From the sequence record OR352959.1: a stretch of 45,321 bases of DNA; one strand, 5' to 3'. The position numbers and the translations under genes were made by a program. Positions 13,395 to 42,788 of the stretch are shown in pieces; position 1 is the first letter of the stretch; the number at the start of each line of letters is the position of its first letter. Below the pieces are notes generated by a model. The model was not told the DNA's origin. It did not search any database and saw only the letters and a program-made list of their open reading frames with translations. Source of the DNA: Escherichia phage AV129.

Positions 13395-13474
13395 GGTATC
13401 ATCTCCTATATTTGGTTGAGTTTTAGTATTACACCGCTCGATCAAGAATGCAACCAATTTACGAGGATTTAGCT

Positions 13475-15298
13475 ATGGCAGCGGGTACTCTATCCGTAAC
13501 GAATAACAGCAAGGCGGTTGTCGGGGTAGGCACGACGTTTACCGCGTTTAACGCTGGCGACTTCTTAACGCTGGTGGTAGGGCAAGTCCCCTACACTGTT
13601 GCTATCGCGTCAGTCGAAAGCGACACCGCGCTTACGCTGGTGCTGCCGTTCGACGGCCCCACGGCAACCGATCTCGCGTGGGATGGCGTTAAGCGCGATA
13701 CCATGTCACTGGCGACGATGGGCGTAACCGTACAGGCACAGAAAGCATTGCGCTTGATGATTGCAGATGAAAACAACTGGCGTGCAATCTTCGGCGACGC
13801 TGAAGAAATAACTGTGACGTTGCCTAACGGGCTGGTAATGCAGGGTATGTCATGGGGATATCTGTCGCAGTTGATGAAACAGGTCGACCCAGTTGAGATG
13901 CGCAACCTGCAACAGCAAGCCGCCGCATCTGAAGCAGCCGCGCAGGGATACCGGAACGAGGCCGAAGGCTTCAAGACCGAGACGGCGGGCATTCGCGACG
14001 CCACCAATCAGATTAAGGCGGATACGCAGGCGATCCACGACGCCACTAATACCATCAAGACGCAGACTGACCAGATTAAGACTGATACTCAGGCCATCAA
14101 GGACCAGACGAACCAGATCAAGACTGACACCGGCGTTATTCGTGACGAAGCCAATATGGCGAAGGCGGACGCGCAAGCCGCCAGCACTGCCGCGGAGGGA
14201 TTTCGCGACCAGGCCGAGGAATGGGCGCAAAGCGTTAACGCGGATAACCTGCTAACCAAATCCGGCAACCTCGCGGGGCTTGCGGACAAAGGTGCGTCGT
14301 GGGCTAACCTCATGCCGTCCGGCCCGCTTCGAGTAGGCGCTGATCCCGTCGACAATCTGGACGCTGCGACTAGAGGATGGGTGTGGCGCGGTCTTGATGA
14401 CGTGGGGGTGTGGGCCTTACGCAATAACTATGCTTCGGAACCCGCTGGCGGCGCAGAAGTATACGGCGGTCGCTTCGACTCATCTGCGAACGTCGCAGGG
14501 GCCGAAAAATACAGAATGTCGCTGCAACTTCAGGGATTTAATAACGTAGACGCCTGGACACGTTTGGTTACCGCGAACGTCCGCAGCATGGAGAACGCGG
14601 CGACGTGGGACTTTAAGTACGATGGTAAGTTGCTTTTCAACAAAGGATTGGTCCCCACGTCCGCCACGGCGTCGCCGGGTAATACCTACGTCACCCTTGC
14701 GAATACCTGGTATAACGGCCAATACTCGGGCCACGTCGGCTTTGTTGGGGGCGGGGTGGGGACGAGTGGTGGCGGGTGGCGTAACTTTATTTCGTTCGGA
14801 GCGCTGATCCACACGGAGGCCGGTAACTCACACCCCCACGCTATGATTTCGCAGGTCTTTGACTATGATTTGGCGTCGGGGGTACAGCCCAACGGCGATA
14901 TCGTTCGAAACACAACATTCAACCCCGAAGCATATGATATTACCTTCGGCAACAACTCAGGGACTGTTAACTATATTTTCGCAAAGTCACCAGTATCCGA
15001 TAGGGCGCTGAAGCATGATATCGCCAGGATCGATACTCAAGTTGCGTACGATAACGTTATGGCGATGGAATACTCTTCCTTTGTTTATAACTACGACAAA
15101 AAGGAGACGGTCAGACGTGGTTTTATCGCGCAGCAGTTGGAAGAGATCGACCCGCAGTATGTTCGTAAGTACGCCGACGCAACGGGTAAAGAGTTTCTGG
15201 CATTAGATGAAAACGTCCTGTTACTTGACCTTGTCGCGACTGTTCAGCATTTGGCGGCGAAGGTTGAGGCGTTAGAAAGTAAGTTAGCGGAGAAATGA
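13475..15298 (+). CDS. side tail fiber with C-terminal intramolecular chaperone (peptidase S74-like)
   Basis: Nine heptad-like repeats (xIKxDTQ type) in the shaft; C-terminal SDRALKHDIARID...LESKLAEK resembles self-cleaving fiber chaperone domains; ATG at 13475 with gagga RBS. Confidence 0.7.
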   Translation: MAAGTLSVTNNSKAVVGVGTTFTAFNAGDFLTLVVGQVPYTVAIASVESDTALTLVLPFDGPTATDLAWDGVKRDTMSLATMGVTVQAQKALRLMIADENNWRAIFGDAEEITVTLPNGLVMQGMSWGYLSQLMKQVDPVEMRNLQQQAAASEAAAQGYRNEAEGFKTETAGIRDATNQIKADTQAIHDATNTIKTQTDQIKTDTQAIKDQTNQIKTDTGVIRDEANMAKADAQAASTAAEGFRDQAEEWAQSVNADNLLTKSGNLAGLADKGASWANLMPSGPLRVGADPVDNLDAATRGWVWRGLDDVGVWALRNNYASEPAGGAEVYGGRFDSSANVAGAEKYRMSLQLQGFNNVDAWTRLVTANVRSMENAATWDFKYDGKLLFNKGLVPTSATASPGNTYVTLANTWYNGQYSGHVGFVGGGVGTSGGGWRNFISFGALIHTEAGNSHPHAMISQVFDYDLASGVQPNGDIVRNTTFNPEAYDITFGNNSGTVNYIFAKSPVSDRALKHDIARIDTQVAYDNVMAMEYSSFVYNYDKKETVRRGFIAQQLEEIDPQYVRKYADATGKEFLALDENVLLLDLVATVQHLAAKVEALESKLAEK

Positions 15299-15304
15299 GA
15301 ATAA

Positions 15305-15328
15305 GGGGCCATACGGCCCCTTTTTTTT
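15305..15328 (+). terminator. rho-independent terminator
   Basis: GGGGCC-atac-GGCCCC hairpin followed by T8. Confidence 0.7.
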
Positions 15329-15902
15329 AGTTTGAGTTTTCCCAGTCCATTTTGCGCCGCACCAGCGGGCTTTCAAAGTATTCCTTGCCCTCAACTTCCA
15401 CCAAAGGCCAGTCGTTCACAATTACGTACGGCTCCGCGATATCCTCAATCACTCCGTGCGCGCTTTGTGGCCCTAACGACACACCAACCAGGATAACCCC
15501 GGCAACGCGACGTGATAGATATTCGCGAGCGCAACGCGCCTCAACCAGTCCGCGACGGATGCCGCTGGTGGCCTTAACCTCGTAGGTCCATACGGCATCG
15601 ATCACATGCTCGCGGAAGTCTGGACCGGACTTAACCTTGCGCTTTCCTACCATGATAATATCTCCGCGGTCGATGGTGTTGGCGCTAAACAGGCCGGTAC
15701 GCATTAGTAAGCCTTGCGGTATGCAACTACGCCCGCCCGCCTGCCCCTCAAGGTACATGCCTGCAAACATTTCGCCCAGCACACCGACCAGTCGGCTTTG
15801 CTTGCACGCGTCAGACTTTAAGCGCCACTGGTCAAACTCGATGCTTGCTATCATTGCCGCCAGGTGGAATTGTTTACCAGATATTTCGTATTCGCCGTAC
15901 AT
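15327..15902 (-). CDS. hypothetical protein (possible PD-(D/E)xK-type nuclease)
   Basis: 191-aa ORF; GPDF...YEVK resembles a PD-(D/E)xK core; weak. Confidence 0.3.
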   Translation of the reverse strand: MYGEYEISGKQFHLAAMIASIEFDQWRLKSDACKQSRLVGVLGEMFAGMYLEGQAGGRSCIPQGLLMRTGLFSANTIDRGDIIMVGKRKVKSGPDFREHVIDAVWTYEVKATSGIRRGLVEARCAREYLSRRVAGVILVGVSLGPQSAHGVIEDIAEPYVIVNDWPLVEVEGKEYFESPLVRRKMDWENSN

Positions 15903-15944
15903 TGTGGATCCTTCATTGATGCGGGCCGAAGCCCGCTATTAGCA

Positions 15945-16616
15945 TTATTTAAGTGCGCCAGTCACCAGTGTTTTTTCCATGTTACGGAAATCTTCCTGCG
16001 TCATGAGGATTTTCGATCCGTCTTCGCCGGTGAGCACGACCATAGGCTGTCCGTCCTGGGCTACAACTCCAAAATCGCGGGCCTTAACAGTCTTGCTGAA
16101 CGAGGCTACCGTGTCCTCTGCAACGCGAATTGCGCTGTTATACGCATTAATTTCACCGTCGAGACGCACGGACAGGTCCGAAGGTTTGAACGCGCCGCCT
16201 GTCTTGATAGGCCAACCCTTGAGGCTGTCGAATTGCGCTGCCGTTGTATCGATCTGAATCTCGTCATGCACGGTCATGTAAGACTCGCCCAGCAGGGCGG
16301 CATACGCCACCAGATCCACGATGTTATCTTCCTGGTGCTTACGGTGCTGGCGCACCAGCTTCAGGCAGATCAAGAAGGTCCAGGCTTCTTGCTCGGTAAG
16401 GTCGCGACCGGTAAGCGCGTTAAACACGGCGGCGATTTGTTTAGCACTGCGCTCCTCTTTCTCGTTGTCATAGCCGTTTTCTTTTCCGCGCTGTTCCATA
16501 GTGGTGGCGGCGTTTTTGCAGTATTCGTATGCTTTCACAGTATTACCCTTTTTTAGCGAGGGGGCTGTACTGCCCCCGACACGTTTACTATAGTGCAACC
16601 AACCTATTGGTTGCAA
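15945..16616 (-). CDS. hypothetical protein
   Basis: 223-aa ORF with protein-like composition; start uncertain (internal ATG at 16499). Confidence 0.4.
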   Translation of the reverse strand: MQPIGWLHYSKRVGGSTAPSLKKGNTVKAYEYCKNAATTMEQRGKENGYDNEKEERSAKQIAAVFNALTGRDLTEQEAWTFLICLKLVRQHRKHQEDNIVDLVAYAALLGESYMTVHDEIQIDTTAAQFDSLKGWPIKTGGAFKPSDLSVRLDGEINAYNSAIRVAEDTVASFSKTVKARDFGVVAQDGQPMVVLTGEDGSKILMTQEDFRNMEKTLVTGALK

Positions 16617-17074
16617 GTGAATTTTGCAACGTTTATTGCGTAAATTTTCGGGACCAAATCACCACACGCCCGACGAATTGCCGCGATGTTCTTCTCGCAA
16701 TCTTCAATGATGACCAGTTCAGACACGTCCGCGTAGACGACCATTTTGAACACGGCGCACGCCTTAAACTCTGGCGGCGGGGTGTCGTCTAGCATGTGGC
16801 GCATGAACAACCTGCCTGTCGGGAATACTTCCAGTTGCTCGGCGGTGGTCTCCCAACATTCTCGCTGCCGGTTTGTCAGATACGCTATCTCGAAGCCTTG
16901 CTCTTTGTACATGCGCAGCAGCGGCAGCATATCCATGTTCAGGTCTTCGCGGACGTGCGCTTTGTGCCACTTTGCCCAAAAGGTTGATTTCGTTTTTATA
17001 CCCGGCACCAGGTCAGCGCGTGCATCACTCGAACCATTAATAACGCCATCAAGATCACAAATCAGTAGTTTCAT
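16604..17074 (-). CDS. HAD-superfamily phosphatase (nucleotidase-like)
   Basis: N-terminal HAD motif I LLICDLDGVI. Confidence 0.55.
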   Translation of the reverse strand: MKLLICDLDGVINGSSDARADLVPGIKTKSTFWAKWHKAHVREDLNMDMLPLLRMYKEQGFEIAYLTNRQRECWETTAEQLEVFPTGRLFMRHMLDDTPPPEFKACAVFKMVVYADVSELVIIEDCEKNIAAIRRACGDLVPKIYAINVAKFTCNQ

Positions 17075-17295
17075 TTTAAGCTCTCAATAAGGGTGTATCG
17101 GACGCTGCGCGCGGAAAACTTGTTACACACAAGATGCCAACTGGCGGTTATGACAAGCCAGCCGGTAAGATCCAGGCCCCGGATATATTCTGGACGTGAC
17201 ACTCGCTTCACGCGATTGCGGCGCGGGTCGATGTTATAGTCTCTTTGCATTTGGTCTACTACCGCGGGGTCGCGGTCAACGATTAAGATATTCAA
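17071..17295 (-). CDS. hypothetical protein
   Basis: 74-aa ORF packed between the HAD and methyltransferase genes. Confidence 0.3.
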   Translation of the reverse strand: MNILIVDRDPAVVDQMQRDYNIDPRRNRVKRVSRPEYIRGLDLTGWLVITASWHLVCNKFSARSVRYTLIESLK

Positions 17296-17761
17296 GGAGT
17301 TCTCCTTCGCTCATTATTTCAATTTGTGCGCTGCCGATGGGCGGCGCTTCGTCAAATATTATCAATTGCTGGCACTTGTTATTGCTCGGCCCGACTTCAC
17401 CGGTGACAGCGTGAATAAATCTAATCCGCCAGTCCAGAAGAATTATCAGGTTTGCAGTCTTCCGGGCCAACTTCGCCCACTTAGTCGACGTGTCCTGATT
17501 CAGCAGCATGACCGTCCGGCGCCCGTACGCTGCGCACTTGACCCACGGCAGCGGATCTGAATACGGCGGATTGCACCACTTCCACCCTTTCAACTCTGCC
17601 CAGTCCTCATCAAGCGCGCTGTGCTCCGCCGTGAAGTAACGCGGTAGCAGGTGGTTTGCATCGCTTGCCGCCATATCGTAACGGAATCGGTACTTCCGAC
17701 GAAGCGGTTTAAATAAAGCTGGCGGCGTGCGCCAGCTATCTTTTTGCTCACTCTTCTGCAT
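17276..17761 (-). CDS. DNA N6-adenine methyltransferase (phage Dam-type)
   Basis: Catalytic motif NPPY (WCNPPYSD) in a 161-aa protein. Confidence 0.7.
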   Translation of the reverse strand: MQKSEQKDSWRTPPALFKPLRRKYRFRYDMAASDANHLLPRYFTAEHSALDEDWAELKGWKWCNPPYSDPLPWVKCAAYGRRTVMLLNQDTSTKWAKLARKTANLIILLDWRIRFIHAVTGEVGPSNNKCQQLIIFDEAPPIGSAQIEIMSEGELLEYLNR

Positions 17762-18212
17762 GATCTTGGTCTATCGCACACAGGGCAGTCTTTTCGCCTT
17801 TCTTCCGGATTCGCTGTAATCGCAGCGACTCCGACACCCCCAAAGGGCGCTCATCCGGGTAGAAGCTGCCGTTAGTGTTATTGCGCCACGCTATCAGCAC
17901 CAGATCTTTCCGGTCGATCTTAGACTGGCGACCTTTGGGGCGCACGTACTCCTCGGCACGTTTGCAATGCTCGCGCAGACCTTCGGCAGTGATGCGGTTT
18001 AGCGCGACGGTGGTGGTGTATCCGGTGCGCTGCATAATACCCATCAACTCATACAGCAGATCGAAGCGCTCCTCTAATTCCTTGCGCGCCTTCTCCTCGC
18101 CTTCATAGCTCGCCAGGTAGGTGTCTGCCAGCGCGCTAACACGTTCGACCTGTTCGCGGGCTTCGAGGCATTGCGCGGCCCAGTAATTTTTCTCTTCTTG
18201 TAAAATTTTCAT
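17748..18212 (-). CDS. hypothetical protein
   Basis: 154-aa ORF rich in charged helix-like segments. Confidence 0.35.
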   Translation of the reverse strand: MKILQEEKNYWAAQCLEAREQVERVSALADTYLASYEGEEKARKELEERFDLLYELMGIMQRTGYTTTVALNRITAEGLREHCKRAEEYVRPKGRQSKIDRKDLVLIAWRNNTNGSFYPDERPLGVSESLRLQRIRKKGEKTALCAIDQDHAEE

Positions 18213-18455
18213 TTATTTAATCTCCGTAGTGCGGATTTCCTTGCGCGGAATAAATTTGCCGTCTTTCTCGACCCAGCAAGTTCCGAAACGCCATTGGGTA
18301 TTACGGCCTGTTTGCTCGGCATACACGGTCTTGCATTCGTAGCGTTCCGTGTAGTAAATAGCCGCGGTAGGTACGAAAATACAAACGGCAAACATGAGGG
18401 TGAGTATCACCCAAAATCGAAGGTCGCCGTCGTAGTCGAAAAATAATGATCTCAT
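18213..18455 (-). CDS. small membrane protein
   Basis: 80-aa ORF with one strongly hydrophobic segment WVILTLMFAVCIFVPTAAIYY. Confidence 0.4.
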   Translation of the reverse strand: MRSLFFDYDGDLRFWVILTLMFAVCIFVPTAAIYYTERYECKTVYAEQTGRNTQWRFGTCWVEKDGKFIPRKEIRTTEIK

Positions 18456-18536
18456 CGTGTTGTCTCCAGGTATTAAAAAGGGCGTCCAAACCGGACACCC
18501 TCAATATAATGCAACCAATATGATTATGCAACCAAT

Positions 18537-18860
18537 TCACGCATAAAAATTCGGGTCGCGCGCGACGTCTACCAGGTAAAGGTTGCTTATGCGGTTGCCG
18601 TAGTGCCCTGGAGTGCGCTGGCGGCACACAACGGCGAAGCCGGGAGGGATTGTATTGCCCGTCTCAATAATCCACGCCACGCGTGCGCCAGACAGCGTCT
18701 TTCCGTTGCATTCGATACGTGTTCCGCCGTCGGCGGTATTGAGGTTGCCAATCTTGCAGCCGGTGGACTTCAGACGGATGACTCCGGTTTTGCTGTCGTA
18801 GGTGAATAGCTGGTTAGTCATTGCGACCGAAAAATCGATGGTTTCGTATGTAGCGTTCAT
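18537..18860 (-). CDS. hypothetical protein (weak HNH-like resemblance)
   Basis: 107-aa ORF; C-terminal GHYGNRISNLYLV is faintly HNH_3-like but the canonical His is not evident. Confidence 0.3.
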   Translation of the reverse strand: MNATYETIDFSVAMTNQLFTYDSKTGVIRLKSTGCKIGNLNTADGGTRIECNGKTLSGARVAWIIETGNTIPPGFAVVCRQRTPGHYGNRISNLYLVDVARDPNFYA

Positions 18861-19552
18861 TTTAAATTTTCCTCGTTAACCGCTATCGCGAAGCCGCGCG
18901 GAGTGAGTGAGCGGATTAATTTTGTACGAGCGGATTTACCACCGAGGCGACTATACTGTTTCGAGTATCCTTTTTCAACGAAAACAGGTTTCTTCTCTGG
19001 CATACGGAAGCCGTTGCCGGTCCATAAGCAAGTCAGCTTCGGATATGAATCGCGGGCGTTGATGTATTCCGGGAAGAGCGGGTGTACGTCATCCTCCGGC
19101 AGATACCCCCCATACTCCCACGGGTCGAACGAGTGATCCGGCTTGCGCCACTGGGTGGAAAGCACACTGCGCGGATTCTAAATCATATATGGCACTTCGA
19201 AGAAGTCACCCAGGTAAGCGGCGATCTTCGCGGTGCGCACCGCCTTAAGCTGAAAGGCTGGGTCTTTAGCCCGCTTGCGCGGGAAAGCTGGCGCGCCGCT
19301 CACTGCCAGATCCGTGCACGGAGGAAACGCATAGATGATATCGGGCGTACCGAAATCACCATTCATCGCGCGGTCAACGAAGTCCAGATCGATAAACTCA
19401 TTGCGATACCGGATTCCGCGACCATAAATCCGGTAGTCAAGGTAAGACCCGTGATCGGCTTCGGAGTAGTTGAAGCAATAACACTTATGCCCCATCTCGG
19501 CAGCACGCTCAATCATCAAACCGCTGCCGTCAAACAATGACCAGATTATCAT
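18857..19552 (-). pseudogene. ORF interrupted by one in-frame amber codon; possible methyltransferase-like protein
   Basis: ORFs 19178..19552 and 18857..19165 are in the same frame, separated by TAG at 19178-19180 plus 4 sense codons; N-terminal part has LFDGSG and FPPC motifs. Confidence 0.45.
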
Positions 19553-21063: not shown

Positions 21064-21202
21064 CGGTAGCCCGGAAGCTCTTAAATTTTTGCCAGCACAC
21101 CGTCAACGGCAGCGGGTAATTCATGCCTGCGATAAACCACACGCGATCGCCCGGTTTACATTCGCCCAGCTTGGTGAGTCGGTAATGTTCTTTCATCGTC
21201 AT
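20978..21202 (-). CDS. hypothetical protein
   Basis: Start set at MTMKEHYRL (ATG at 21202) with GAGAGAGA RBS-like sequence. Confidence 0.3.
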   Translation of the reverse strand: MTMKEHYRLTKLGECKPGDRVWFIAGMNYPLPLTVCWQKFKSFRATGVHIGHATNYDATKRNWNSETEVWKKAE

Positions 21203-21220
21203 GTCTCTCTCTAAAAATGG

Positions 21221-21237
21221 CGGGACAAGCCCGCCGT
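21221..21237 (-). terminator. putative minus-strand intrinsic terminator
   Basis: GGCGGG-acaa-GCCCGCC hairpin with a T-run on the minus strand. Confidence 0.45.
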
Positions 21238-21242
21238 ATTGA

Positions 21243-21476
21243 TTATTCTTGTTCTGCGCGATAGCGGCGCTGCCGTTCGCGCTCTTTCTTATTGCGGCAC
21301 GACTTGCACTCGGCCCGATGACCGTCTGGACTTCGCGCAGTCTTGCCGGTGTACTTGTGGAACTGGGATAGCGGCTTGATGCATCCGCAATTACTACAAC
21401 GTTTTTCTTCAATCATTTCTAAAATCCTCGATAGTGCCAACCTGCACACTATACCGCTACGCGACCAATTCAGCAA
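21243..21476 (-). CDS. zinc-ribbon protein
   Basis: C-x2-C ... C-x2-C arrangement (CSNCGC ... CKSCR) and basic C-terminus; start may be internal. Confidence 0.4.
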   Translation of the reverse strand: MLNWSRSGIVCRLALSRILEMIEEKRCSNCGCIKPLSQFHKYTGKTARSPDGHRAECKSCRNKKERERQRRYRAEQE

Positions 21477-21735
21477 CCAATAAATCGCAGTCGGCTATGT
21501 TGTCGATAACGCGAACGTCAGCACCGCGGCGGGCCATCCGTTCATGTTCGCGCACCTGGTGCGGCTTCGGTTTCCCACCTGGGCGCTTCACTTCGACGAA
21601 CACTATTTTGCCGTTGATGATAATAATAAGGTCGGGCGCACCTGCGCGCCCCTCCCATGCCAGTTTTCGGCAGAATCCCCCAACGGCTTTAACCAGCTTC
21701 ATCAGGTGACTTTGTATCTTGCCTTCTGGTGTCAT
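21457..21735 (-). CDS. VRR-NUC domain nuclease
   Basis: GAPDLIII...VEVKRPGGKPKPHQ matches the VRR-NUC PD-(D/E)xK core. Confidence 0.65.
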   Translation of the reverse strand: MTPEGKIQSHLMKLVKAVGGFCRKLAWEGRAGAPDLIIIINGKIVFVEVKRPGGKPKPHQVREHERMARRGADVRVIDNIADCDLLVAELVA

Positions 21736-21968
21736 TTGGTCTGCAACTCCACGTTACGCAGACGAAGGTCTACCGGTATATCCGACCGGCCGGTTAGTGC
21801 CAGCGCCAGGTTTTCAGGCGTGACGAGTGCCGTAATGGTCTTGCCACGTTCCAGTCTAATGACGATTCTAATCTCGTCATTGTCCGTCGCGCCAGCGCGC
21901 ATAATGCTCATTTCTGCTTTCATAATCTTACTTCCTGTACCTGTACATAATGTCGCCTTCGGCGGCAA
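21732..21968 (-). CDS. hypothetical protein
   Basis: Small ORF immediately downstream of the polymerase gene; start uncertain. Confidence 0.3.
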   Translation of the reverse strand: MPPKATLCTGTGSKIMKAEMSIMRAGATDNDEIRIVIRLERGKTITALVTPENLALALTGRSDIPVDLRLRNVELQTK

Positions 21969-26064: not shown

Positions 26065-26154
26065 TTTCCAATTCCTCATTTTCACATGTATCGGGGTTAT
26101 TGGAAGCCACCCCGTTCGGCTTGGTTGCTAATTTACTTGGTTGCGCCTAAGCGG

Positions 26155-26397
26155 TCAAGCATTTTCATTAAAAAGATTTCTGGTCACGTAGTTGGTAGCG
26201 TTCTCGATCCAGCTTAACGGCGGGCGTTCGATGTTCTTCCCCACCCAATCGGCGGCAGCTTCGCTATAGCCGTCATCCAGCCAGCGGGTCGGATGTCGAA
26301 TCATCCACGCCACCATTAACACGCCTTGCACACAATTCAGGATAAAGCCCAGCGCGCCGATAACAAACATCAATAAGATTGCAAATACTTTATTCAT
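26155..26397 (-). CDS. small membrane protein
   Basis: 80-aa ORF with N-terminal hydrophobic segment AILLMFVIGALGFILNCVQGVLMVAWMI. Confidence 0.4.
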   Translation of the reverse strand: MNKVFAILLMFVIGALGFILNCVQGVLMVAWMIRHPTRWLDDGYSEAAADWVGKNIERPPLSWIENATNYVTRNLFNENA

Positions 26398-28300: not shown

Positions 28301-28308
28301 GGAATATA

Positions 28309-28737: not shown

Positions 28738-29078
28738 GGTATATCTCCGATTGGTTAAGTTTAGGTGTCGGCAGTTAACTTCGTCGGTGGCCTTAACATA
28801 TTGCCAGGTTACGCGTTCTCCCGTTCGGGTAGTGGACCTGGTTATATAATCACGGTTGGGAATCCTGACACTTCGATCCGGCCCCTGCGTTGCCCCTCTC
28901 CAGTTTGCGTCCTGCATCCTGTCGACGGGGTGAATAATAGATTGGTTGCAGGATGGGTGTCAACAACTAATTTCAAAAAAAAGCGCCGAGGCAAAATGCG
29001 ACGGCGCTAACCAATAAGAGACAATGAGACGGGAATTATTATTACACGCGTGCGCGCCCGTTTCAATATCCAAAGGAT

Positions 29079-29478: not shown

Positions 29479-31743
29479 ATGAGCTTGATTAAATTCGCTG
29501 TAACACGACCCGCTAAAAAAGGCGAAAAAGCCAGGGCGGAAAACTTCCAGATGACTACCGAAGAGTTTTTCGAATTTATCAAAGATGCGAAAGAAATCTC
29601 CTCGGTGCATATCAACAAGACGGAAGATAAAGCCGAGTATGCGCGCCGCAAGCGTAAGGCCGATGGTATCGTGGCTTATACCAGTGATGGGCTGCGCCGC
29701 AAGACCAGTGCCGTGGACCGTTCGATCCTGTTCTTCGATATCGACCGTACCGACACCCGCACCCTGCGCCGCTGCCGTAAGGCGTTCATCGACGCGGGAC
29801 TGGAGCACGTCTTCCACACCACAACCGGCGACCGCCACCCGCTGAAAGGCGGCACGCGTTGCGCTCGTTTCCTGGTGCTCACTGACAAGCCTGTACCGGC
29901 AGAAGACCTGGGCCGCGTCCAGTATGCACTATTACACCAACTGGGTCTGTCAGATGTGGACTTCGACGATTGTACTAAAGACACAAACCGCCTTATGTAC
30001 CTGCCACACCAGCAGTCTGTTATTAAATGCCATTACGGCAAACGTGCCCGCGTCCGTCGTCTGCTTCGCCTGGCGGATAAGCTGGGAGTGGAAAAAGAGG
30101 AAGTACGCCGCGAACTAACCCAGGGCGATGACGGCGTGGCGGACGGTATTCTGGATTGGTGCTTCCAGGCAGGATTCGAACCGCTGTCGTCCGGTCGTGG
30201 CTATGAAGTGCCATGCCCGAACGAACACCTGCACAGTGGTGAAGGGTCCACCGCTATCATGGTTAAGGATGGCGAGATCCGTTTCAAGTGTATGCACACC
30301 GGCAACGAGTGCTGTTCCGAACTGAACAGACACCAGCACCTGGCGCTACGTCTTATCGGGATCCCGGACCACTTGAACGTCGAACCGCACAACATGTCAC
30401 GTAAGCAAATCGCCGCCATCCTTCCGGGACTGGACGATGAGGAAGTGGAATCGTGCTATGCGCATATCGTTGACGCGGTTGGCGACGGCGAAGAATATGG
30501 CGTGTGCACCGATGCGGATCTGGATAACGAGCCGGTTGCGCTGTTCAGTAAGCACGACCCGATCATCGAGGGGTTGATTAACTTTAAATCGACCTGGTAT
30601 ATGGCGGGCGAGTCGAACATCGGTAAATCGTTCTACGTGCTGGGGCAAATGGGCGCTGTTGCCGCCGGTATTCCGTTCGGTGGTGCGAAGGTTGTCCAGT
30701 CGCATTGCTTCTATTTCGATGCGGAAGGTGGCGAAGCCTCCAACCAGCGTAAGGAAGCATTGCAGATCAAATATGAGCACGACCTCGACAAGCTGCACAT
30801 TATCGACCTGCAATCACGCGGCTGGGATATCACCAGCAAGTCAGGATTGCGTGAAGTTATCAGCTTCATCAACCGCACCGCTAACGGCGAACCGGTTGGC
30901 CTGGTGGCGTTCGACTCACTCAACCAGACTGTTGCGTTGCGGTCCGCCGATGCTAAACCGTTCGACGAGAACAACGCCAGCGATATGGGCGAAGTGGTCA
31001 AAGCGCTGAAGGCCATCGCGGAAAATACAGGCGGCAGTGCGGGAGTCATCCACCACCCGGCGAAAGGTGCAAACGGCAGCAGATCCCCCCGCGGGTCCGG
31101 CGCGCTGCATGGTGCTGTTGATTCGGCGTTCTTCCTTGAGCAACCGGACGACAACCAACCAGGCCAATTGAACCTGTATCACGAAAAGGCACGTAACGGC
31201 ATCAAGCAAGCGCCGCGCGGATTCGTCCTGCTCAAGTGCAAGGTTAAGGTGGATCTCCGCAAGTCCGAGGCGTTCGAAGCCCACCAGTCCACCAGCACCG
31301 GGCCGGACTTCGGCGATGTGGTTGCCGGTTGGGACGTCAAGCCAATTGCATCCACGCCACGCGACGAGACTCTTTACCTCGTACCGGTCGCCCTGGCACC
31401 GTTCGCCATTGAGCAGGCGAAGTCCGCGGGCAAAGCAGCAGTTAAAGAAGAGAACACTGCCGGACCGCGCAACGAAAAAGAGAAAGTGCTTTATGCGGCA
31501 CTGGAAAAACTGATGGAAGATAACCCGGACCATACCGGATTCAGTAAATCGGCAATTGTCCGCCAGGCTGGATTGGCAAAAGGAGGAACATCGACGAAGG
31601 CAATCGACGATATGGTCGAGCGCGGAGTGTTAGGTTTTTATACCGATCCGCACACCGGGGCCATCTATGGGTCGTCGAATATCGTCATAAAAACGAATAT
31701 ACCCATCACGCTTTCGGCGACCGACGACGACTTAAAAGATTAA
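29479..31743 (+). CDS. DNA primase-polymerase / helicase
   Basis: N-terminal prim-pol-like region (FFDIDRTD) and RecA-like NTPase with Walker A GESNIGKS. Confidence 0.8.
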   Translation: MSLIKFAVTRPAKKGEKARAENFQMTTEEFFEFIKDAKEISSVHINKTEDKAEYARRKRKADGIVAYTSDGLRRKTSAVDRSILFFDIDRTDTRTLRRCRKAFIDAGLEHVFHTTTGDRHPLKGGTRCARFLVLTDKPVPAEDLGRVQYALLHQLGLSDVDFDDCTKDTNRLMYLPHQQSVIKCHYGKRARVRRLLRLADKLGVEKEEVRRELTQGDDGVADGILDWCFQAGFEPLSSGRGYEVPCPNEHLHSGEGSTAIMVKDGEIRFKCMHTGNECCSELNRHQHLALRLIGIPDHLNVEPHNMSRKQIAAILPGLDDEEVESCYAHIVDAVGDGEEYGVCTDADLDNEPVALFSKHDPIIEGLINFKSTWYMAGESNIGKSFYVLGQMGAVAAGIPFGGAKVVQSHCFYFDAEGGEASNQRKEALQIKYEHDLDKLHIIDLQSRGWDITSKSGLREVISFINRTANGEPVGLVAFDSLNQTVALRSADAKPFDENNASDMGEVVKALKAIAENTGGSAGVIHHPAKGANGSRSPRGSGALHGAVDSAFFLEQPDDNQPGQLNLYHEKARNGIKQAPRGFVLLKCKVKVDLRKSEAFEAHQSTSTGPDFGDVVAGWDVKPIASTPRDETLYLVPVALAPFAIEQAKSAGKAAVKEENTAGPRNEKEKVLYAALEKLMEDNPDHTGFSKSAIVRQAGLAKGGTSTKAIDDMVERGVLGFYTDPHTGAIYGSSNIVIKTNIPITLSATDDDLKD

Positions 31744-32275
31744 ATTTTGCGCGCATTGGTTGCCGATATGGGAATTCCCATATCGCTAAAAGATTAATTT
31801 GTGCGCGCATTGGTTGCCATTTTGAGTGTTTTTATCTGGTCGTATTGGTTGCCGTGTAGCGTAGACGCAATGAATAGTTATGCAGATTTCGTGCATAAAC
31901 CAAACGGGACAGAAAGCGGGACAAACAAGGGGCGGGACAAAACGGGACAGCACCCCCGTCCCGCCCCGGATGGCGCGGCCTGGAGAGGCGCGGGACAAGC
32001 GGGACAAACCCCAGTCTTTCAGACTAGACGGGGGTCAACGGCCCCCCTCGTCTGAGACTGCATAAAATCCGGGATTGCAAAATACACGGCAGCATGTTGC
32101 GGATTGCGGTCGTCACTGGACTAGGCAACCAATGCGAGTTGCTGAATGGTGGGTAGAAAATGCAGTTTGCAGTTGCAGCAGATAGCGATCAACTTTTTCA
32201 TGCGCGTGATTAATATTGGTTGCATTCACCCCGGCACCTTGCTATATTGGTTGCGCACCAACAGGAGGGCGGAAC
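31744..32275. repeat. repeat-rich ori-like intergenic region (contains copy 2 of the iteron/hairpin element)
   Basis: 532 bp non-coding: 22-nt direct repeat x2, 22-bp perfect palindrome at 31764-31785, GGGACA iterons and long hairpin at 31893-32060, several TTGGTTGC boxes. Confidence 0.55.
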
Positions 32276-32787: not shown

Positions 32788-33057
32788 ATGAGCCGTAGAC
32801 GCGCAAAACAGCTTTCGTGGCATATTCCCCTGCATTGCATACGAATATGGGCTAAGAATGCGGTTGAGGGCGAATCTGTATTCTGGAGCTATCGCGACGA
32901 CGTTAAGCCGTTGACGCAGACTCGCTACTTGCACCAGTTCGCAGCACAACACGATTTCAGGGTGCGGACCTCCTTGCAACCAATGGGGATCCGTATTACC
33001 TTACGCCGGAAGCCCGCCGTTGAGCGGGTAGGCAAACACTGGAGGCTGAGCAAATGA
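32788..33057 (+). CDS. hypothetical protein
   Basis: 89-aa ORF. Confidence 0.3.
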   Translation: MSRRRAKQLSWHIPLHCIRIWAKNAVEGESVFWSYRDDVKPLTQTRYLHQFAAQHDFRVRTSLQPMGIRITLRRKPAVERVGKHWRLSK

Positions 33058-35446: not shown

Positions 35447-35650
35447 GCTTGACTTGCAACCAACATAGACGCCATACTGCGACCAATCAACAAGAGGAGT
35501 ATTACACTATGGCACGTAATGATATTTGGGTATTGGCAATCTGGTCCGCCGCGGGATTTATCGGTATGGTTATTTGCGAATTGCTATAACCCGCCGCAAT
35601 AGGGACCGTGGTATATTGTCCCCGGTCCCATAATCAGGAAGTGGATTAAT

Positions 35651-39066: not shown

Positions 39067-40587
39067 ATGACCGTTAACGTTGACAACCAGCACCCACTTT
39101 ATGCGCGCATCGCGCAAGAGTGGAAAATGATCCGTGACTGTGTAGCAGGGGAGCGCGCCGTGAAGGCGTGCGGCCCCTTGTACCTGCCTCATCCCGCCAG
39201 TGGCGACAACACTGACCCGAAAGCACGGGCGCGGTATAAGGCGTATAAGCAGCGCGCTGTATTCCTGAACGCCACCGCCCGCACACTTAACGCGCTGTTA
39301 GGCGTTGCCTTTGCTAAACCGGTAAGTCTGGACCTTTCCGGGGCGATGGCTGACCTTATTGACGACGTAGACGGCAGCGGTATGCCGCTGCCGCAACTCC
39401 TGCGCGGTGCTATGTCCGAAGTTCTGCAATCAGGCCGTGCGGGCTTTATGGTGGACTACGATCGCCAGGCGCATTTTGATGAACTGGGTAACGTAGTGCC
39501 GCAGACCGCCGCTGAGATGGCGTCACACCGCCCGCTTATCCGCCTGTACACGGCAGAACAGATCATCAACTGGCGGCAGACCCACGGCGTCGATACGCTA
39601 ATTGTGCTGAAGGAAACGGACGAAATCAGCACCGAAGACCCGGACGACTTCGCAAACCACGAAGTAACAATCTGGACCGAGCTTCGCATGATTAACGGTG
39701 CGGCACACGCCCGCCGCTGGTTTTATAACGCGGACACGTCCGATGTGCAAATGGACTTACCGCGTGGATTCACCCGCACCGATCTTGTGCCGCTGGTGGA
39801 TGCTACCGGTAAGGCGCTGACACAACTTCCGTTTTGCTGGTGTGGCGCGGTGGACAACAACGCAACGCCAGACGCCGCTCCGCTGGCGGATATCGCATCC
39901 ATCAACATTAAGCACTACAACGCCGAAGCGGACGTCGCCGAGATCGCGCACATCGTGGGCCAACCTACCCTGGTTGCGACGGGCTTGACTCAATCATGGG
40001 CGGATAAAAACCTGAAAGGCGGCATCGCGCTCGGAGCGACTAAGGGCGTTATTCTGGGTCAGAACATGGACGCTAAACTGATCCAGGCTGAGGAGAGAAA
40101 CCTGTCAGTTGCGCTGTGTGAGCGTCGCGAATTGCAAATGGCTAAACTTGGTGCGGCCCTGGTTGAGAAGGGGACCGCACCTAAGACGGCAACAGAGGCG
40201 GCCTACGATGCGCAGACTGATAACAGTATCCTGTCGCTTATTGCCGGTAACGTTGAGAAGGCGTTCAACCGTGCGCTGCAAATCGTCCAGCTATTCACGG
40301 GCGACACCGCCGACCAGCGTGTGACGCTGAATAAGTTCTACACCGAAATCACGGTTGATGCGCAGCTTATGACCGCGATGATGTCTGGTGTGCAGACTGG
40401 TACGGTCCGACTGGCTGACTTCATCAAGTGGATGATGGCGCAGGGCGTTATCGACGACTCGCAAACCGTCGAGCAGGTGGAAGACGAATTGCGAAATCAG
40501 AATCCATTGCCCCAAATGTCCCCCGATGCGGTAGAATCTACCGAAGAAGACCCGGACAAGGTAGCGGACAATGGCGAAGACAATTAA
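39067..40587 (+). CDS. portal protein
   Basis: 506-aa ORF directly after the large terminase; acidic C-terminus. Confidence 0.75.
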   Translation: MTVNVDNQHPLYARIAQEWKMIRDCVAGERAVKACGPLYLPHPASGDNTDPKARARYKAYKQRAVFLNATARTLNALLGVAFAKPVSLDLSGAMADLIDDVDGSGMPLPQLLRGAMSEVLQSGRAGFMVDYDRQAHFDELGNVVPQTAAEMASHRPLIRLYTAEQIINWRQTHGVDTLIVLKETDEISTEDPDDFANHEVTIWTELRMINGAAHARRWFYNADTSDVQMDLPRGFTRTDLVPLVDATGKALTQLPFCWCGAVDNNATPDAAPLADIASINIKHYNAEADVAEIAHIVGQPTLVATGLTQSWADKNLKGGIALGATKGVILGQNMDAKLIQAEERNLSVALCERRELQMAKLGAALVEKGTAPKTATEAAYDAQTDNSILSLIAGNVEKAFNRALQIVQLFTGDTADQRVTLNKFYTEITVDAQLMTAMMSGVQTGTVRLADFIKWMMAQGVIDDSQTVEQVEDELRNQNPLPQMSPDAVESTEEDPDKVADNGEDN

Positions 40588-41674: not shown

Positions 41675-41975
41675 GTATGCAGCGATTGGGCTGGTAATAG
41701 GCCTGGCGGTTGGATTCTGGCAGGGGGATTCCTACCGCACTGGCGTTGTGGCGAGAGCGGCGCAAGAAGCGCAAGCGAAAGCCCAACGGCAGCAAACTAA
41801 GGTCGTCGAGGGGGCAGTGCAAGCAGAACAGACCCGCGACGTAGAATACCGGACTATAACGAAAGAGGTTGTTAAATATGTTACGCGCCCTAACCGCCCT
41901 GATTGTAGTTTTGATGCTGAGCGCGTGCGGATCAAGCAACGTGCCGTTGATGCCGCTAACGGAGTCGGTCTATAG
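41667..41975 (+). CDS. i-spanin (Rz-like)
   Basis: GTG at 41667 after SD-like cagggggc; N-terminal TM segment IKYAAIGLVIGLAVGFW, Gln/Ala-rich coiled region, C-terminal Cys. Confidence 0.55.
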   Translation: MIKYAAIGLVIGLAVGFWQGDSYRTGVVARAAQEAQAKAQRQQTKVVEGAVQAEQTRDVEYRTITKEVVKYVTRPNRPDCSFDAERVRIKQRAVDAANGVGL

Positions 41976-42108
41976 ACCGCCTTGCACCTTTGAGAATGCC
42001 TCGGCAGATCCAGACGAAGACTTGCTGGTTGATGTTAAGAATATGGAGTGTGGTGCTAAGCTAAGGGCGCAAGTGCTGGAGTTACAGAAAATAATTCGGG
42101 GGCCGTGA
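41869..42108 (+). CDS. o-spanin (Rz1-like lipoprotein), overlapping the i-spanin in another frame
   Basis: Signal peptide with lipobox LSAC, Pro-rich mature region; starts inside the Rz-like gene in a different frame. Confidence 0.6.
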   Translation: MLNMLRALTALIVVLMLSACGSSNVPLMPLTESVYRPPCTFENASADPDEDLLVDVKNMECGAKLRAQVLELQKIIRGP

Positions 42109-42122
42109 TGGCCCCCTTTTTT
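42097..42122 (+). terminator. rho-independent terminator
   Basis: GGGGGCC-gtgat-GGCCCCC hairpin followed by T6. Confidence 0.7.
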
Positions 42123-42127
42123 GTTAG

Positions 42128-42646
42128 CTACAAACGCATCGGCATGATAACAAGGAAGGCACCGCCTTTGAACAGCACACGGGTCGCCTTGTCTACTCCC
42201 TGAAATTCCAGTTTTAAGCTATCAAACTTACGGTCGAACAATTTAGCAATTTTGCAGGCGTCTGACAGGTATACCCCGGCAAACCCTATAGCTTCCACTT
42301 TAGCGCTATCGAAAGACGTAACTCTACTCCAGTCTGGGAATCGGCCGTCTACGATCTCTACGGGTATGGTACCGATTAATACGTCTTTACTATCAAAGAA
42401 CGCAGCGGAGGTGCCGTCTATGTTGCAGTATTCGAATTTAGTAGGTAAGCGGCCTTTAATTGCTACTATTTTACTTTCACCTTCGGGAACAACCGCGGAC
42501 CCGCAGAACAAACGATGACCGTCGGTGGACACGATGAATCCTTTCTCGTCGAAAAATACACCGTTCAGACAGTATCGCACGTCATTAGTCGCGGCGCACA
42601 TCATAGCGGCTTTAAGATCGGCATAGTTAACTTTAATCATTGTCAT
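42128..42646 (-). CDS. truncated DnaN-like protein (beta sliding clamp domain II plus C-terminal remnant)
   Basis: DVRYCLNGVFFD, STDGHRL, VDGRFPDWSRV and C-terminal VIMPMRL match conserved segments of bacterial beta clamp as I recall them; only 172 aa; start MTMIKVNY. Confidence 0.7.
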   Translation of the reverse strand: MTMIKVNYADLKAAMMCAATNDVRYCLNGVFFDEKGFIVSTDGHRLFCGSAVVPEGESKIVAIKGRLPTKFEYCNIDGTSAAFFDSKDVLIGTIPVEIVDGRFPDWSRVTSFDSAKVEAIGFAGVYLSDACKIAKLFDRKFDSLKLEFQGVDKATRVLFKGGAFLVIMPMRL

Positions 42647-42788
42647 TTCCTCGTTGTTGGTGTGCAACCAATATATGCAACCAATACGCGGATTGCAAGC
42701 GAATTTTGCGATTATTTTTATCACTGATAATATTAGAGGCGTGAAGTCGAGCGGGTGGCCCGCTCTGCCACAATCCCAGGGGGATAGC

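Follow-up and report, generated by a model that had tools for sequence, protein, structure and literature searches.

Several described systems use short DNA sites in ways that bear on the locus reported here. The C1 repressor of the temperate phage P1 acts through many dispersed asymmetric operators, each 17 bp long. DnaA boxes are 9 bp long and asymmetric, are each read by one helix-turn-helix (HTH) domain, and form a cluster at the origin while serving at promoters as well. The alpha protein of P4 is a primase-helicase whose C-terminal winged-helix origin-binding domain recognises the type I repeats, 8 bp long, of ori and crr. Mu Mor/C, PhoB and T4 MotA/AsiA are activators that replace or assist sigma region 4 at poor -35 hexamers. 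The window analysed here (the whole stretch of 45,321 nucleotides from Escherichia phage AV129, sequence record OR352959.1) is a complete Dhillonvirus genome of the HK578/SO-1 type and carries many copies of a 9-base box, GCAACCAAT. We tentatively propose, at somewhat less than an even chance, that this box is the recognition site of a sequence-specific DNA-binding protein of the phage, likely gp47, which would repress transcription. The box map provides a regulatory map for this little-studied phage genus.

A search of both strands showed 15 exact copies of GCAACCAAT compared to 0.41 expected from dinucleotide-preserving shuffles (shuffle maximum 2), an enrichment of about 36-fold, and a one-mismatch search gave 28 matches compared to 12.2 expected. 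The site set used below consists of the 15 exact copies and six one-mismatch variants that are conserved and promoter-proximal, 21 sites in all (Table 1). ATTGGTTGC is the commonest 9-mer of the whole window, and GCAACCAA is the top intergenic 8-mer, present in eight intergenic regions. By the curated gene map the non-coding fraction is 5.8% of the window, and 12 of the 15 exact boxes are wholly non-coding (binomial P = 5.6e-13). The recurrent intergenic box of the original prediction is real; its coordinates were within 0-3 nt of the true ones, but 32976 and 35479 had been missed, and close pairs are 11-23 bp apart from start to start rather than 13-17 bp. Boxes 16606 and 21473 each fall within the final codons of a gene, and the promoter of the next gene is located there (16606 doubles as the last three codons of gene 16604-17074), and 32976 is the only exact box deep within a gene.

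Table 1. Boxes, predicted promoters and associated features, in window coordinates
Feature	Position	Strand or direction	Description
Exact copies of GCAACCAAT	13450, 16606, 18511, 18528, 21473, 28941, 31755, 31809, 31844, 32125, 32215, 32246, 32976, 42664, 42677	both strands searched	
One-mismatch variants (n = 6)	16595, 21461, 26120, 26136, 35456, 35479		conserved and promoter-proximal
Exact box	13450..13458	+	conserved in 6 genomes; 16 nt upstream of side-fibre ATG at 13475
Promoter	13453..13425	minus, leftward	TTGCAT-17-AATACT; TTGC of -35 hexamer supplied by box 13450
Genes served by promoter 13453..13425	13394..12205		lipoprotein/membrane gene pair
Inverted box pair	16595..16614		GCAACCAAC at 16595 (+), GCAACCAAT at 16606 (-)
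Promoter (consensus scan)	16616..16587	leftward	TTGCAA-18-TATAGT; contains inverted pair 16595/16606
Two exact boxes, 17 bp apart	18511..18536	+	arrangement also in L011
Promoter	18531..18503	minus	TTGCAT-17-TATATT; box 18528 forms -35 hexamer TTGCAT, box 18511 the spacer
GCGACCAAT at 21461 and exact box at 21473	21461..21481	+	last codons of VRR-NUC gene 21457-21735
Promoter	21476..21448	leftward	TTGCTG-17-TATAGT; -35 hexamer and spacer formed by boxes 21461/21473
Two GCAACCAAG variants	26120..26144	-	one in spacer abutting -10 hexamer, other starting 1 nt past -10
Promoter (consensus scan)	26158..26130	leftward	TTGACC-17-TAAATT; upstream of ssDNA-binding protein gene; holds the GCAACCAAG variants
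Exact box	28941..28949	-	spacer (-22..-14) of PL
PL, strong early promoter (consensus scan)	28963..28934	leftward	TTGACA-18-TATTAT
PR, early promoter	29079-29107	+, rightward	TTGACA-17-TAGTTT
Degenerate box TTAACCAAC	29117-29125	+	5'-UTR of gp47, downstream of PR
gp47	29139-29468	+	109 aa; first gene of rightward early operon
gp48, primase-helicase	29479..31743	+	AAA_25 domain (RecA/DnaB-like helicase)
Four-box cluster	31755..32133		ATTGGTTGC on + at 31755, 31809, 31844; GCAACCAAT on + at 32125
GCGGGACAA iterons (GGGACA-type)	31905-32010		regular repeats of origin-like locus
Hairpin	32012-32060		roughly 50 nt; flanked by origin-proximal boxes
Two exact boxes	32215..32254	-	one forms -35 hexamer, other lies over -10 hexamer and start site
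Promoter	32220-32248	rightward	TTGCAT-17-TATATT; upstream of small-gene and lysis operon
Exact box	32976..32984	+	deep in gene 32788-33057; conserved with gene in close relatives; no promoter found
GCAACCAAC at 35456, GCGACCAAT at 35479	35456..35487	+	directly after -35 and -10 hexamers, respectively
Promoter (consensus scan)	35449-35478		TTGACT-18-CATACT; 3' of a terminator; drives phosphoesterase/terminase operon
Two exact boxes, 13 bp apart	42664..42685	+	spacer and -10 hexamer/start site of promoter 42698..42670
Promoter (consensus scan)	42698..42670	minus	TTGCAA-17-TATATT; drives variable cargo gene 42646..42128

The logo of the 21 sites showed a sharply defined, asymmetric core of 9 bp, (A)TTGGT(T)GC, with GCAACCAAT on the other strand, which occurs in both orientations. 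Its information (about 17 bits) is confined to the 9 bp and none is found in the flanks, indicating that the copies are not duplicated modules. The logo has no partner half-site and so lacks the dyad symmetry of a palindromic operator of the Cro/CI type. The extended arrangement TTGCAAG(T/C)GAATTTTGC that had been described at two places was found at 16611-16629 and 42692-42710, and it is the common -35 and upstream region of promoters 16616..16587 and 42698..42670, both leftward and clearly paralogous over about 45 nt.

Sixteen of the 21 sites fall on nine predicted sigma70-like promoters, where they overlap a hexamer (-35 or -10), the spacer or the start site; five of these promoters were obtained from a consensus scan and four read by hand, the latter with a 17-bp spacer in each. 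Relative to the start, boxes were found at -40..-32, -34..-26, -29..-21, about -23..-13, -9..-1, -6..+4 and about +3..+11, in both orientations. A core sigma70 element keeps one orientation and one distance to its partner hexamer; the position of the box (-40 to about +11) and its orientation vary, which is not expected of a core promoter element. Boxes coincide with ordinary TTGACA/TATAAT-like -35/-10 pairs, and the scanned non-structural proteins (Pfam, PHROGs) yielded neither an RNA polymerase nor a complete sigma factor. The original prediction had offered a phage-regulator site or a non-sigma70 promoter element; for the reasons above the latter, like a promoter for a phage polymerase, was not supported. 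The evidence favours a protein-binding operator, which would account for a site that is short and asymmetric, has uninformative flanks, is used in both orientations, overlaps core promoters and, in relatives about 71% identical, either persists or is replaced in place. Because the box overlaps nearly all predicted promoters and clusters beside the likely origin, it is very probably the docking site of a phage DNA-binding protein.

Comparison with related genomes showed that six further Dhillonviruses have 13-16 copies each at orthologous places, kept even upstream of different cargo genes. In four metagenomic relatives, about 71% identical, ATTGGTTGC is still the top 9-mer and is found at the same promoters; invariant columns make up 61/108 in the boxes compared to 205/773 in the remaining columns of these intergenic alignments (P = 1e-9). 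In these diverged relatives second boxes shift position but remain inside the core promoter, PL has two tandem boxes compared to one in the window, and the 5'-UTR of gp47 has a perfect GCAACCAAT or GCAACCAAC where the window has TTAACCAAC. In overlapping core promoters and in being conserved beyond their flanks, the boxes have properties expected of operators.

Two HTH proteins had been suggested as binders. The result showed that gp47 carries an HTH, with Pfam HTH_23, Sigma70_r4_2 (26.2 bits, cut-off 25.7) and HTH_28 above cut-offs and a match to NCBIfam ECF sigma region 4 (E = 3e-4). The other, 35651-36793, was rejected, as it is a calcineurin-like metallophosphoesterase (PHROG 'DNA repair exonuclease') in which no HTH was detected. 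gp47 is the sole HTH protein among about 33 non-structural proteins scanned. It scored 16.8 bits against HTH_3, below the cut-off of 23, and is not a member of the Cro/C1 (HTH_3) family. The AF2 model (pLDDT 85) has a long helix followed by two helices, and the architecture predicted for gp47 is a long helix (coiled coil) with a basic HTH at the C-terminus. The C-terminus (pI 9.9 over 63 aa) is conserved and under purifying selection (19-25 synonymous compared to 8-9 non-synonymous codon differences), and the N-terminal 45 aa are hypervariable. gp47 was present in 11 of 11 genomes or loci bearing ATTGGTTGC and absent from phiEap-2, Tsm2 and TS6, and within the covered region the phyletic pattern of the exact box was matched by just two proteins, gp47 and a membrane protein. 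Judged from sequence, gp47 is most likely the best candidate for the box binder in this genome.

If gp47 is the binder, each asymmetric box would be read by one DNA-binding domain. Most boxes come in pairs, with flexible spacing and orientation. Because the boxes sit on the -35 hexamer, spacer, -10 hexamer or first transcribed bases, a protein bound there would compete with the RNA polymerase of the host and thereby lower phage transcription, as Cro does. Autoregulation would be included, through the degenerate box in the 5'-UTR of the early rightward operon whose first gene is gp47. Two points count against repression: the four boxes in a fixed register (-40..-32) at weak -35 hexamers would fit activation too, and the use of a repressor on late-operon promoters as well is not obvious.

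Two features were absent from the original prediction, namely a box cluster by an origin-like element and related boxes in phages without gp47. The cluster, four of the 21 sites with spacings of 54, 35 and 281 bp and mixed orientation, flanks an iteron and hairpin element just 3' of the primase-helicase gene. No convincing promoter was found at these four boxes, which counts against the operator reading. The possibility that the boxes are themselves replication-origin iterons was rejected, as they are neither tandem nor regular and are not concentrated at one locus. In Serratia phage Tsm2, in which no gp47 homologue was detectable, GCAACCAA occurs 12 times compared to 1.0 expected; GCAACCAAC boxes are nevertheless present and cluster in the primase-helicase gene, with four GCAACCAA copies within 120 nt inside its 3' end, in two reading frames. 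phiEap-2 and TS6 have a related box, CAGCCAAC, at the same location. Boxes in phages that lack gp47 point to a putative binder that predates gp47 and would be common to Guernseyvirinae.

An explanation that starts from this cluster, and which we consider unlikely but not negligible, is that the boxes are sites of a replication initiator (gp48 or a conserved partner), the origin-proximal cluster being primary and the promoter boxes secondary, for feedback control or for helicase loading where promoter DNA melts readily; the cluster would then resemble the short iterons of P4 alpha or DnaA boxes. Dhillonvirus, the diverged relatives, Tsm2, phiEap-2 and TS6 have just one feature in common, a box cluster that lies in the 3' end of the primase-helicase gene or immediately beyond it; this cluster always adjoins lineage-specific iterons and a conserved hairpin, and gp48 is found in all these lineages. 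The gp48 C-terminal domain has a predicted helix-strand-helix-helix-strand-strand order that is winged-helix-like. Also in its favour, the mutations of HK578 mutants that escape OLD defence lie in the helicase-primase and in this operon's promoter, and the authors read both as related to replication initiation (bioRxiv 10.64898/2026.07.10.737580). However, the C-terminal domain has an acidic pI of 5.0-5.6 in three lineages, D, D and E occur in its putative recognition helix, and its structure model is of low confidence (pLDDT 49.6). Dhillonvirus and Tsm2 have the same box core, yet their versions of the domain are only about 25% identical, and the domain differs between the window and L011/L012 despite the exact box in both. 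Moreover, the nearby GGGACA-type iterons are at least an equally good candidate target of an initiator, and 16 of the 21 sites lie on promoters rather than at the origin.

A less probable explanation is that the box is a positive promoter element, at which an activator bound at -40..-32 replaces or assists sigma region 4 at poor -35 hexamers and directs the RNA polymerase of the host to middle or late promoters of the phage. In line with this, ATTGGTTGC lies in identical register at four promoters (13453..13425, 18531..18503, 21476..21448 and 32220-32248), where TTGC starts a 3-of-6 -35 hexamer, the spacer measures 17 bp and the -10 hexamer matches at 4-5 of 6 positions (fair to good); the register is kept in 3 of 3 such promoters recovered in diverged relatives. 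The gp47 HTH scores as sigma70 region 4, and a candidate late rightward promoter (scaffold/capsid, 42706-42733) has boxes 42664/42677 at about -57 to -78. However, the fixed-register promoters also hold a second box in the spacer or over the -10/start site, which should block polymerase, and at promoters with a good TTGAC-type -35 hexamer the box is reversed and lies in the spacer or at +1, so that neither position nor orientation is fixed. No match to the MotA, AsiA or Mor families was found among the proteins scanned; with the fixed register at only four window promoters, a T4 MotA-type middle promoter was rejected.

It is more doubtful still that gp47 is a free-standing sigma-region-4-like module that reads ATTGGTTGC in place of a -35 hexamer at one promoter class, blocks polymerase at another and marks the origin. 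If so, a single small protein would switch host RNA polymerase between phage promoter classes in a manner coupled to replication, and its hypervariable N-terminus would be a surface evolving against host partners or defences. Binding by a host protein conserved in Enterobacterales and exploited by the phage seems very improbable: the box core is common to E. coli and Serratia phages with different early HTH proteins, but no E. coli factor is known to have this consensus, and a different box is found in phiEap-2 and TS6, which have closely related hosts. That the boxes are functionless, as leftovers of duplicated promoter modules (for which the paralogous promoter pair might speak) or a by-product of -35-like TTG strings, is scarcely credible, because it is contradicted by the conservation statistics, the boxes being preserved or substituted in place where overall identity is about 71% and kept in two reading frames within a gene in Tsm2, as well as by the enrichment and by the lack of information beyond 9 bp.

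The proposed gp47 operators share features with several of the systems introduced above. As with the T4 MotA box and Mu Mor/C, four promoters have a fixed-register box over a weak -35 hexamer, and gp47 is small, has its HTH at the C-terminus and may dimerise through a predicted long-helix region; unlike in those systems, other boxes are reversed or at variable positions within the spacer or at +1. As with P4 alpha, a fused primase-helicase gene with a winged-helix-like predicted C-terminal domain is followed by short asymmetric repeats of variable orientation. However, the gp48 helicase is RecA/DnaB-like (AAA_25), its C-terminal domain is acidic, a second repeat family (GGGACA) competes for the iteron role, and no sequence or fold match between gp48 and P4 alpha was obtained. 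Like DnaA boxes, the boxes are 9-bp, asymmetric, present in both orientations, clustered by an origin-like region and single or paired on promoters, a distribution that fits dual use at a putative origin and at promoters; unlike them, most lie at promoters, their sequence is unrelated (DnaA TTATCCACA compared to ATTGGTTGC), and this phage has no AAA+ initiator carrying DnaA domain IV.

Compared to the P1 C1 operators, the boxes are likewise asymmetric, many, dispersed, often paired, in either orientation and on promoters of unrelated operons, but they are 9 bp rather than 17 bp long and also cluster by an origin-like element, and no homology was seen between gp47 and C1. Compared to lambda Cro/CI, the box is an asymmetric 9-mer rather than a 17-bp palindrome, lies over at least nine promoters genome-wide rather than in two operator regions, and would be bound by a protein outside the HTH_3 family in a virulent phage. 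As in lambda, sites lie over core elements of divergent early promoters, and the candidate regulator is, as in the early lytic turn-down by Cro, the product of the first rightward early gene, whose own promoter carries a site; the Guernseyvirinae relatives have true Cro/C1-type HTH proteins encoded at this gene position.

The window was found to be a complete, permuted Dhillonvirus genome of 45.3 kb, that of an HK578/SO-1-like virulent E. coli siphovirus. Its nearest matches had approximately 92–93% identity over 8 kb; at least 80% of the query was covered by 122 phage records. A gene map was compiled from the ORF list and the annotations of SO-1, HK578, TheodorHerzl, Haito, rolling and Sponge, and is given in the table together with promoters and leader strings.

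Genes, box-bearing promoters and leader strings of the window (box positions are relative to the predicted start)
Feature	Position (nt)	Strand or direction	Box position and remarks
Tail genes	1–12179	+	
Two membrane or lipoprotein genes	12205–13394	−	
Side fibre gene	13475–15298	+	
Block for replication and nucleotide metabolism	15327–28917	−	
Rightward block	starts 29139	+	gp47 HTH protein (29139–29468), then gp48 primase-helicase (29479–31743)
Region B	after gp48		532 nt, non-coding; in rightward block
Rest of rightward block			in order: small genes, lysis cassette, metallophosphoesterase, terminase, portal, head genes
Cargo gene	42128–42646	leftward	scaffold and capsid genes come next
PL (leftward early promoter)	28963..28934	leftward	box −22..−14
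Promoter	26158..26130	leftward	boxes −21..−13 and −5..+4
Promoter	35449–35478	rightward	boxes −29..−21 and −6..+3
Fixed-register promoter	13453..13425		box −40..−32; spacer 17 bp
Fixed-register promoter	18531..18503		box −40..−32; spacer 17 bp
Fixed-register promoter	21476..21448		box −40..−32; spacer 17 bp
Fixed-register promoter	32220–32248		box −40..−32; spacer 17 bp
Paralogous promoter	16616..16587		−35 TTGCAA; box ~−23..−14, additional box −34..−26
Paralogous promoter	42698..42670		−35 TTGCAA; box ~−23..−14, additional box −9..−1
ACCAAC/ACCAAA leader strings	32255–32270, 42650–42663, 29119–29127, 13405–13416		equivalents in L029 (TS6) and L008 (metagenomic relative)

The Dcm-like cytosine methyltransferase gene (18857–19552, minus strand), which is 696 nt in SO-1, has an in-frame stop at 19178–19180 (...VPYMI*NPRSV...); this could reflect a pseudogene, a sequencing error or read-through. 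The DNA polymerase gene (21928–25116, minus strand) is about 900 nt longer than the HK578 and TheodorHerzl versions and, as in SO-1, contains an HNH endonuclease ORF (22874–23632) in another frame. The insert is termed a group I intron in the SO-1 record; the polymerase ORF of the window runs unbroken through it, and Rfam returned no group I intron in it at the gathering threshold. A 74-aa ORF (17071–17295, minus strand) between the Dam methyltransferase and phosphatase genes is, judged by position and length, the homologue of the Dhillonvirus protein Ksap1, for which triggering of KpAvs2 defence has been shown (PMC11564622). A 52-nt stretch (28850–28901) within the 5′ end of gene 28309–28917 showed 92% identity to several Drexlerviridae-type phages (JK16, JLBYU07 and others), in which the position is mostly unannotated; no further match to those phages was found elsewhere in the 8-kb query.

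The results showed that GCAACCAAT, with 15 exact copies against 0.41 expected and a maximum of 2 in shuffled sequences, is the commonest 9-mer of the window. Twelve of the exact copies lie in non-coding DNA, which makes up 5.8% of the window (binomial P = 5.6e-13), so that both the recurrence and the intergenic preference claimed in the original prediction were borne out. Two others (16606 and 21473) lie within the final codons of a gene, at the promoter of the next, and 32976 is the sole exact copy deep within a gene. GCAACCAA is the intergenic 8-mer with the widest spread (16 of 20 copies non-coding, over 8 intergenic regions). Six one-mismatch variants occupy conserved promoter positions (16595, 21461, 26120, 26136, 35456 and 35479). 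Alignment of all 21 sites showed a sharp-edged core, (A)TTGGT(T)GC, beyond which there is practically no information and no dyad partner; the copies are therefore independent short sites and not relics of duplicated modules. The exception is the pair of promoters 16616..16587 and 42698..42670, which have ~45 nt in common; this explains the extended arrangement reported there in the original prediction. A paired-box search of viral contigs returned mostly unrelated matches, by chance or from tandem repeats.

Read along the direction of transcription, the boxes coincide with sigma70-like promoters of two groups. Where the −35 is a good TTGAC-type one (PL, 26158..26130 and 35449–35478), GCAACCAAT lies within the spacer or right behind the −10 hexamer; where the −35 hexamer is weak (the fixed-register and the paralogous promoters), the box has the opposite orientation, ATTGGTTGC. 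At the four fixed-register promoters, the −35 hexamer begins with the TTGC of the box, and in all but one of them a second box falls between −28 and −1. At PR (29079–29107), the rightward early promoter of gp47 and gp48, the only box is a degenerate TTAACCAAC within the 5′-UTR. Nearly every promoter has at least one box within the RNA polymerase footprint region. The box had been proposed to be a regulator site or a non-sigma70 promoter element; its varying orientation and position rule it out as a core promoter element in its own right, and it failed the tests for such an element, for a palindromic Cro/CI operator, for classical iterons and for a MotA-type box.

Between PR and PL, at 29066..28968 (minus strand), lies a further sigma70-like promoter (TTGAAA-17-AATAAT, with TG ahead of the −10), followed ~30 nt on by a canonical intrinsic terminator (GCGCCGTCGCATTTTGCCTCGGCGC plus T8; fold z-score −2.2). 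This promoter–terminator element is kept in six genomes, includes the near-box TTATTGGTTAGC, and may yield a transcript of ~60 nt or serve as an insulator. Directly 3′ of the box promoter 35449–35478, a 26-aa ORF (35510–35590, plus strand; MARNDIWVLAIWSAAGFIGMVICELL) with a good ribosome-binding site is kept in relatives and resembles a single-pass membrane peptide. Several 5′-UTRs have an ACCAAC or ACCAAA string 1–10 nt upstream of the Shine-Dalgarno sequence (e.g., GCACACCAACAGGAGG), with conservation that extends to Salmonella phage TS6 (ACACCAACAGAGGAG); the string may be either a weak box or a leader element of its own that acts in RNA.

Six further Dhillonviruses were found to have 13–16 exact boxes each at orthologous positions. 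Among the Dhillonviruses compared, the spacers differ yet the boxes are invariant, and the box-bearing promoter is retained ahead of differing cargo genes. In four metagenomic relatives (L007, L008, L011 and L012; ~71% identity over alignable sequence, gp48 66–69% identical), ATTGGTTGC remains the top 9-mer and is found at the same promoters. The −40..−32 register is retained in these diverged relatives, tandem boxes are present as a pair at PL, a perfect box lies at about +3..+11 of PR, and second boxes are shifted within the spacer, a case of site turnover. In six intergenic regions aligned with these relatives, 61 of 108 columns within window boxes were invariant versus 205 of 773 others (P = 1e-9).

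A Pfam scan of about 33 non-structural proteins showed gp47 to be the sole HTH protein among them, with scores above the cut-off for HTH_23 (28 bits), Sigma70_r4_2 (26.2 bits) and HTH_28 (26 bits), and its residues 56–103 align with ECF sigma factor region 4 (NCBIfam, E = 3e-4). The AF2 model (pLDDT 85) consists of a single long helix and then a two-helix HTH end, and the C-terminal part is basic (pI 9.9). Foldseek with this model returned generic HTH domains alone, none significant (all E > 1), namely serine-recombinase DNA-binding domains, LuxR/GerE and sigma region 4, and profile search gave no informative PDB match. The family was found solely in Dhillonvirus-like genomes, and across 23 members residues 47–106 are almost invariant and the N-terminal 45 hypervariable. 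Codon differences in the C-terminus against the 71% relatives were 19–25 synonymous and 8–9 non-synonymous, an excess indicating conservation at the protein level. The N-terminus occurs as many unrelated alleles, with an extended 142-aa form in HK578; this variation suggests diversifying selection or module swapping at a partner-binding end. In the phages phiEap-2, Tsm2 and TS6, the gene position of gp47 is held by Cro/C1-type HTH proteins, which supports a regulator role for the gene at that place. In a phyletic comparison over the stretch that all loci cover, gp47 and the membrane protein 33879–34166 alone were present in every ATTGGTTGC genome and missing from phiEap-2 and Tsm2. Several of these properties fit a DNA-binding regulator. 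No lineage combining a changed gp47 HTH with a changed box was found, the HTH being conserved in the family. The label 'DNA recombination nuclease inhibitor gamma', given to gp47 in several records, was unsupported by Pfam, PHROGs and NCBIfam, and gp47 was rejected as a duplicated initiator domain since it shows no similarity to gp48.

The box also occurs in phages without gp47, and the primase-helicase gp48 is a serious rival as its binder. phiEap-2, Tsm2 and TS6 are Guernseyvirinae with a shared replication module (gp48 43–46% identical). In Tsm2, 12 copies of GCAACCAA were counted, mostly as GCAACCAAC, where shuffles averaged 1.0 and reached at most 4. Four of them fall in a 120-nt stretch within the 3′-terminal part of the primase-helicase coding sequence, in two reading frames, implying selection on the DNA; among the others, one stands behind a −10-like TATTAT and another in the region of the divergent early promoters. 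phiEap-2 (nine copies) and TS6 (five copies) have CAGCCAAC instead, located inside or immediately past the 3′ end of the gene for the primase-helicase and close to where the next operon has its promoter. These related boxes, CA(A/G)CCAA(C/T), with an origin-proximal cluster in gp47-less phages, imply that the box family predates gp47. gp48 is favoured as binder by the window cluster, which follows its gene at an origin-like element and has no convincing promoter, and by a winged-helix-like secondary-structure pattern (low confidence) in its C-terminal 90 residues; however, its C-terminal domain is acidic (pI 5.0–5.6 in three lineages) and poorly conserved among lineages with a common box. HK578 mutants escaping OLD defence are reported to map to the helicase-primase and to the gp47–gp48 operon promoter, both loci being linked to replication initiation by the authors (2026 preprint, bioRxiv 10.64898/2026.07.10.737580); these data fit the operon structure and are silent on the boxes.

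Within the coding sequence of the primase-helicase C-terminal tail, related boxes were seen in Tsm2 (L013, 9374–9496), where GCAACCAAC is used in two frames, and in phiEap-2 (L010, 39838–39969), where CAGCCAACA codes Q-P-T twice, so that a cis-acting cluster sits inside the coding sequence of the likely initiator. Tsm2 gp19 (109 aa, C-terminal HTH) resembles gp47 only weakly (hhalign E = 0.004, probability 9%) and lacks counterparts elsewhere. Among other candidate binders, gp53 is a membrane protein despite its agreement with the phyletic pattern, gp46 (28309–28917) was rejected for want of a full-length match in Haito, which yet has 13 boxes, and no DNA-binding signature was found in gp45 or gp44. 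The product of 35651–36793, originally taken for a second HTH protein, proved to be a calcineurin-like metallophosphoesterase (PHROG 'DNA repair exonuclease').

The window cluster (31755, 31809, 31844 and 32125) flanks GCGGGACAA iterons and a conserved hairpin of ~50 nt. The core of region B (31870–32110) is paralogous to region A (2937–3321), a non-coding stretch between the tail-chaperone and tape-measure genes from which the GCAACCAAT box is absent. The order in both is TGCATAA, GCGGGACAA repeats and the ~50-nt hairpin (CAGTCTTTCAGACTAGACGGGGG...CCCC..GTCTGAGACTG), and 11 of the 12 exact GCGGGACAA copies in the window lie in the two regions. Related elements were seen in phiEap-2 (39930–40170), in L008 (3150–3400) and 3′ of the primase-helicase gene in TS6; the hairpin is conserved out to phiEap-2, and the repeats vary by lineage (GGGACA, GGTGCC, CGGACA, GTGCGGAA in Tsm2 and GGGGGAGA in TS6). 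Regions A and B may be two origins or another cis-acting element; the SO-1 record marks region B merely as a repeat region. At 31734–31818, the last primase-helicase codons and one box form a 54-nt tandem duplication, AAAAGATTAA(A)TTT(T)G(T)GCGCGCATTGGTTGCC, with a perfect 22-nt palindrome (CGATATGGGAATTCCCATATCG) behind the first copy; the box count there is one in SO-1, two in HK578 and three in the window.

Taken together, the box is very probably a protein-binding site. It would act mainly as an operator through which a phage protein competes with RNA polymerase for almost every promoter of the phage, that of its own gene among them, and would have a second role at the origin-like region. 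gp47 is the leading candidate for the reader, a tentative choice; the primase-helicase or another conserved protein comes next and is rather unlikely. Repression as the net effect is favoured over activation. The reading of the box as a site of activation or sigma appropriation is alive, drawing on the fixed −40..−32 register over a weak −35 and on the sigma-region-4-like HTH of gp47. The whole-window Rfam scan returned no RNA family and thus no explanation at the level of RNA. A nut-like or translational role in RNA was dropped because the boxes point either way with respect to transcription and are mostly placed ahead of the likely starts, and a CytR (GTTGCATT) or sigma54-like site was rejected because the conserved portion is ATTGGTTGC and not the adjacent bases.

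Dhillonviruses (HK578, SECphi18 and the BASEL phages Bas14–18) are widely used to probe bacterial immunity, and we know of no description of their transcription programme. No description of the box motif was found in the searchable literature, and database records annotate at most three promoters, all generic (three in the HK578 record). The boxes provide a ready map of about ten transcription units and a shortlist of testable regulators (gp47 and gp48), and indicate the likely origin region; the map is useful for engineering Dhillonviruses and for reading escape mutants in the gp47–gp48 operon. The origin-proximal cluster common to Guernseyvirinae suggests an older regulatory system, elaborated in Dhillonvirus. 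The finding is real and biologically meaningful, yet of an expected kind. The box system is alike in logic to the lambda Cro operators and to P1 C1, the operators of which are dispersed and asymmetric, but belongs to neither family; and although the box is not a member of the DnaA box family, it is likewise 9 bp and asymmetric, and is located at an origin-like region and at promoters.
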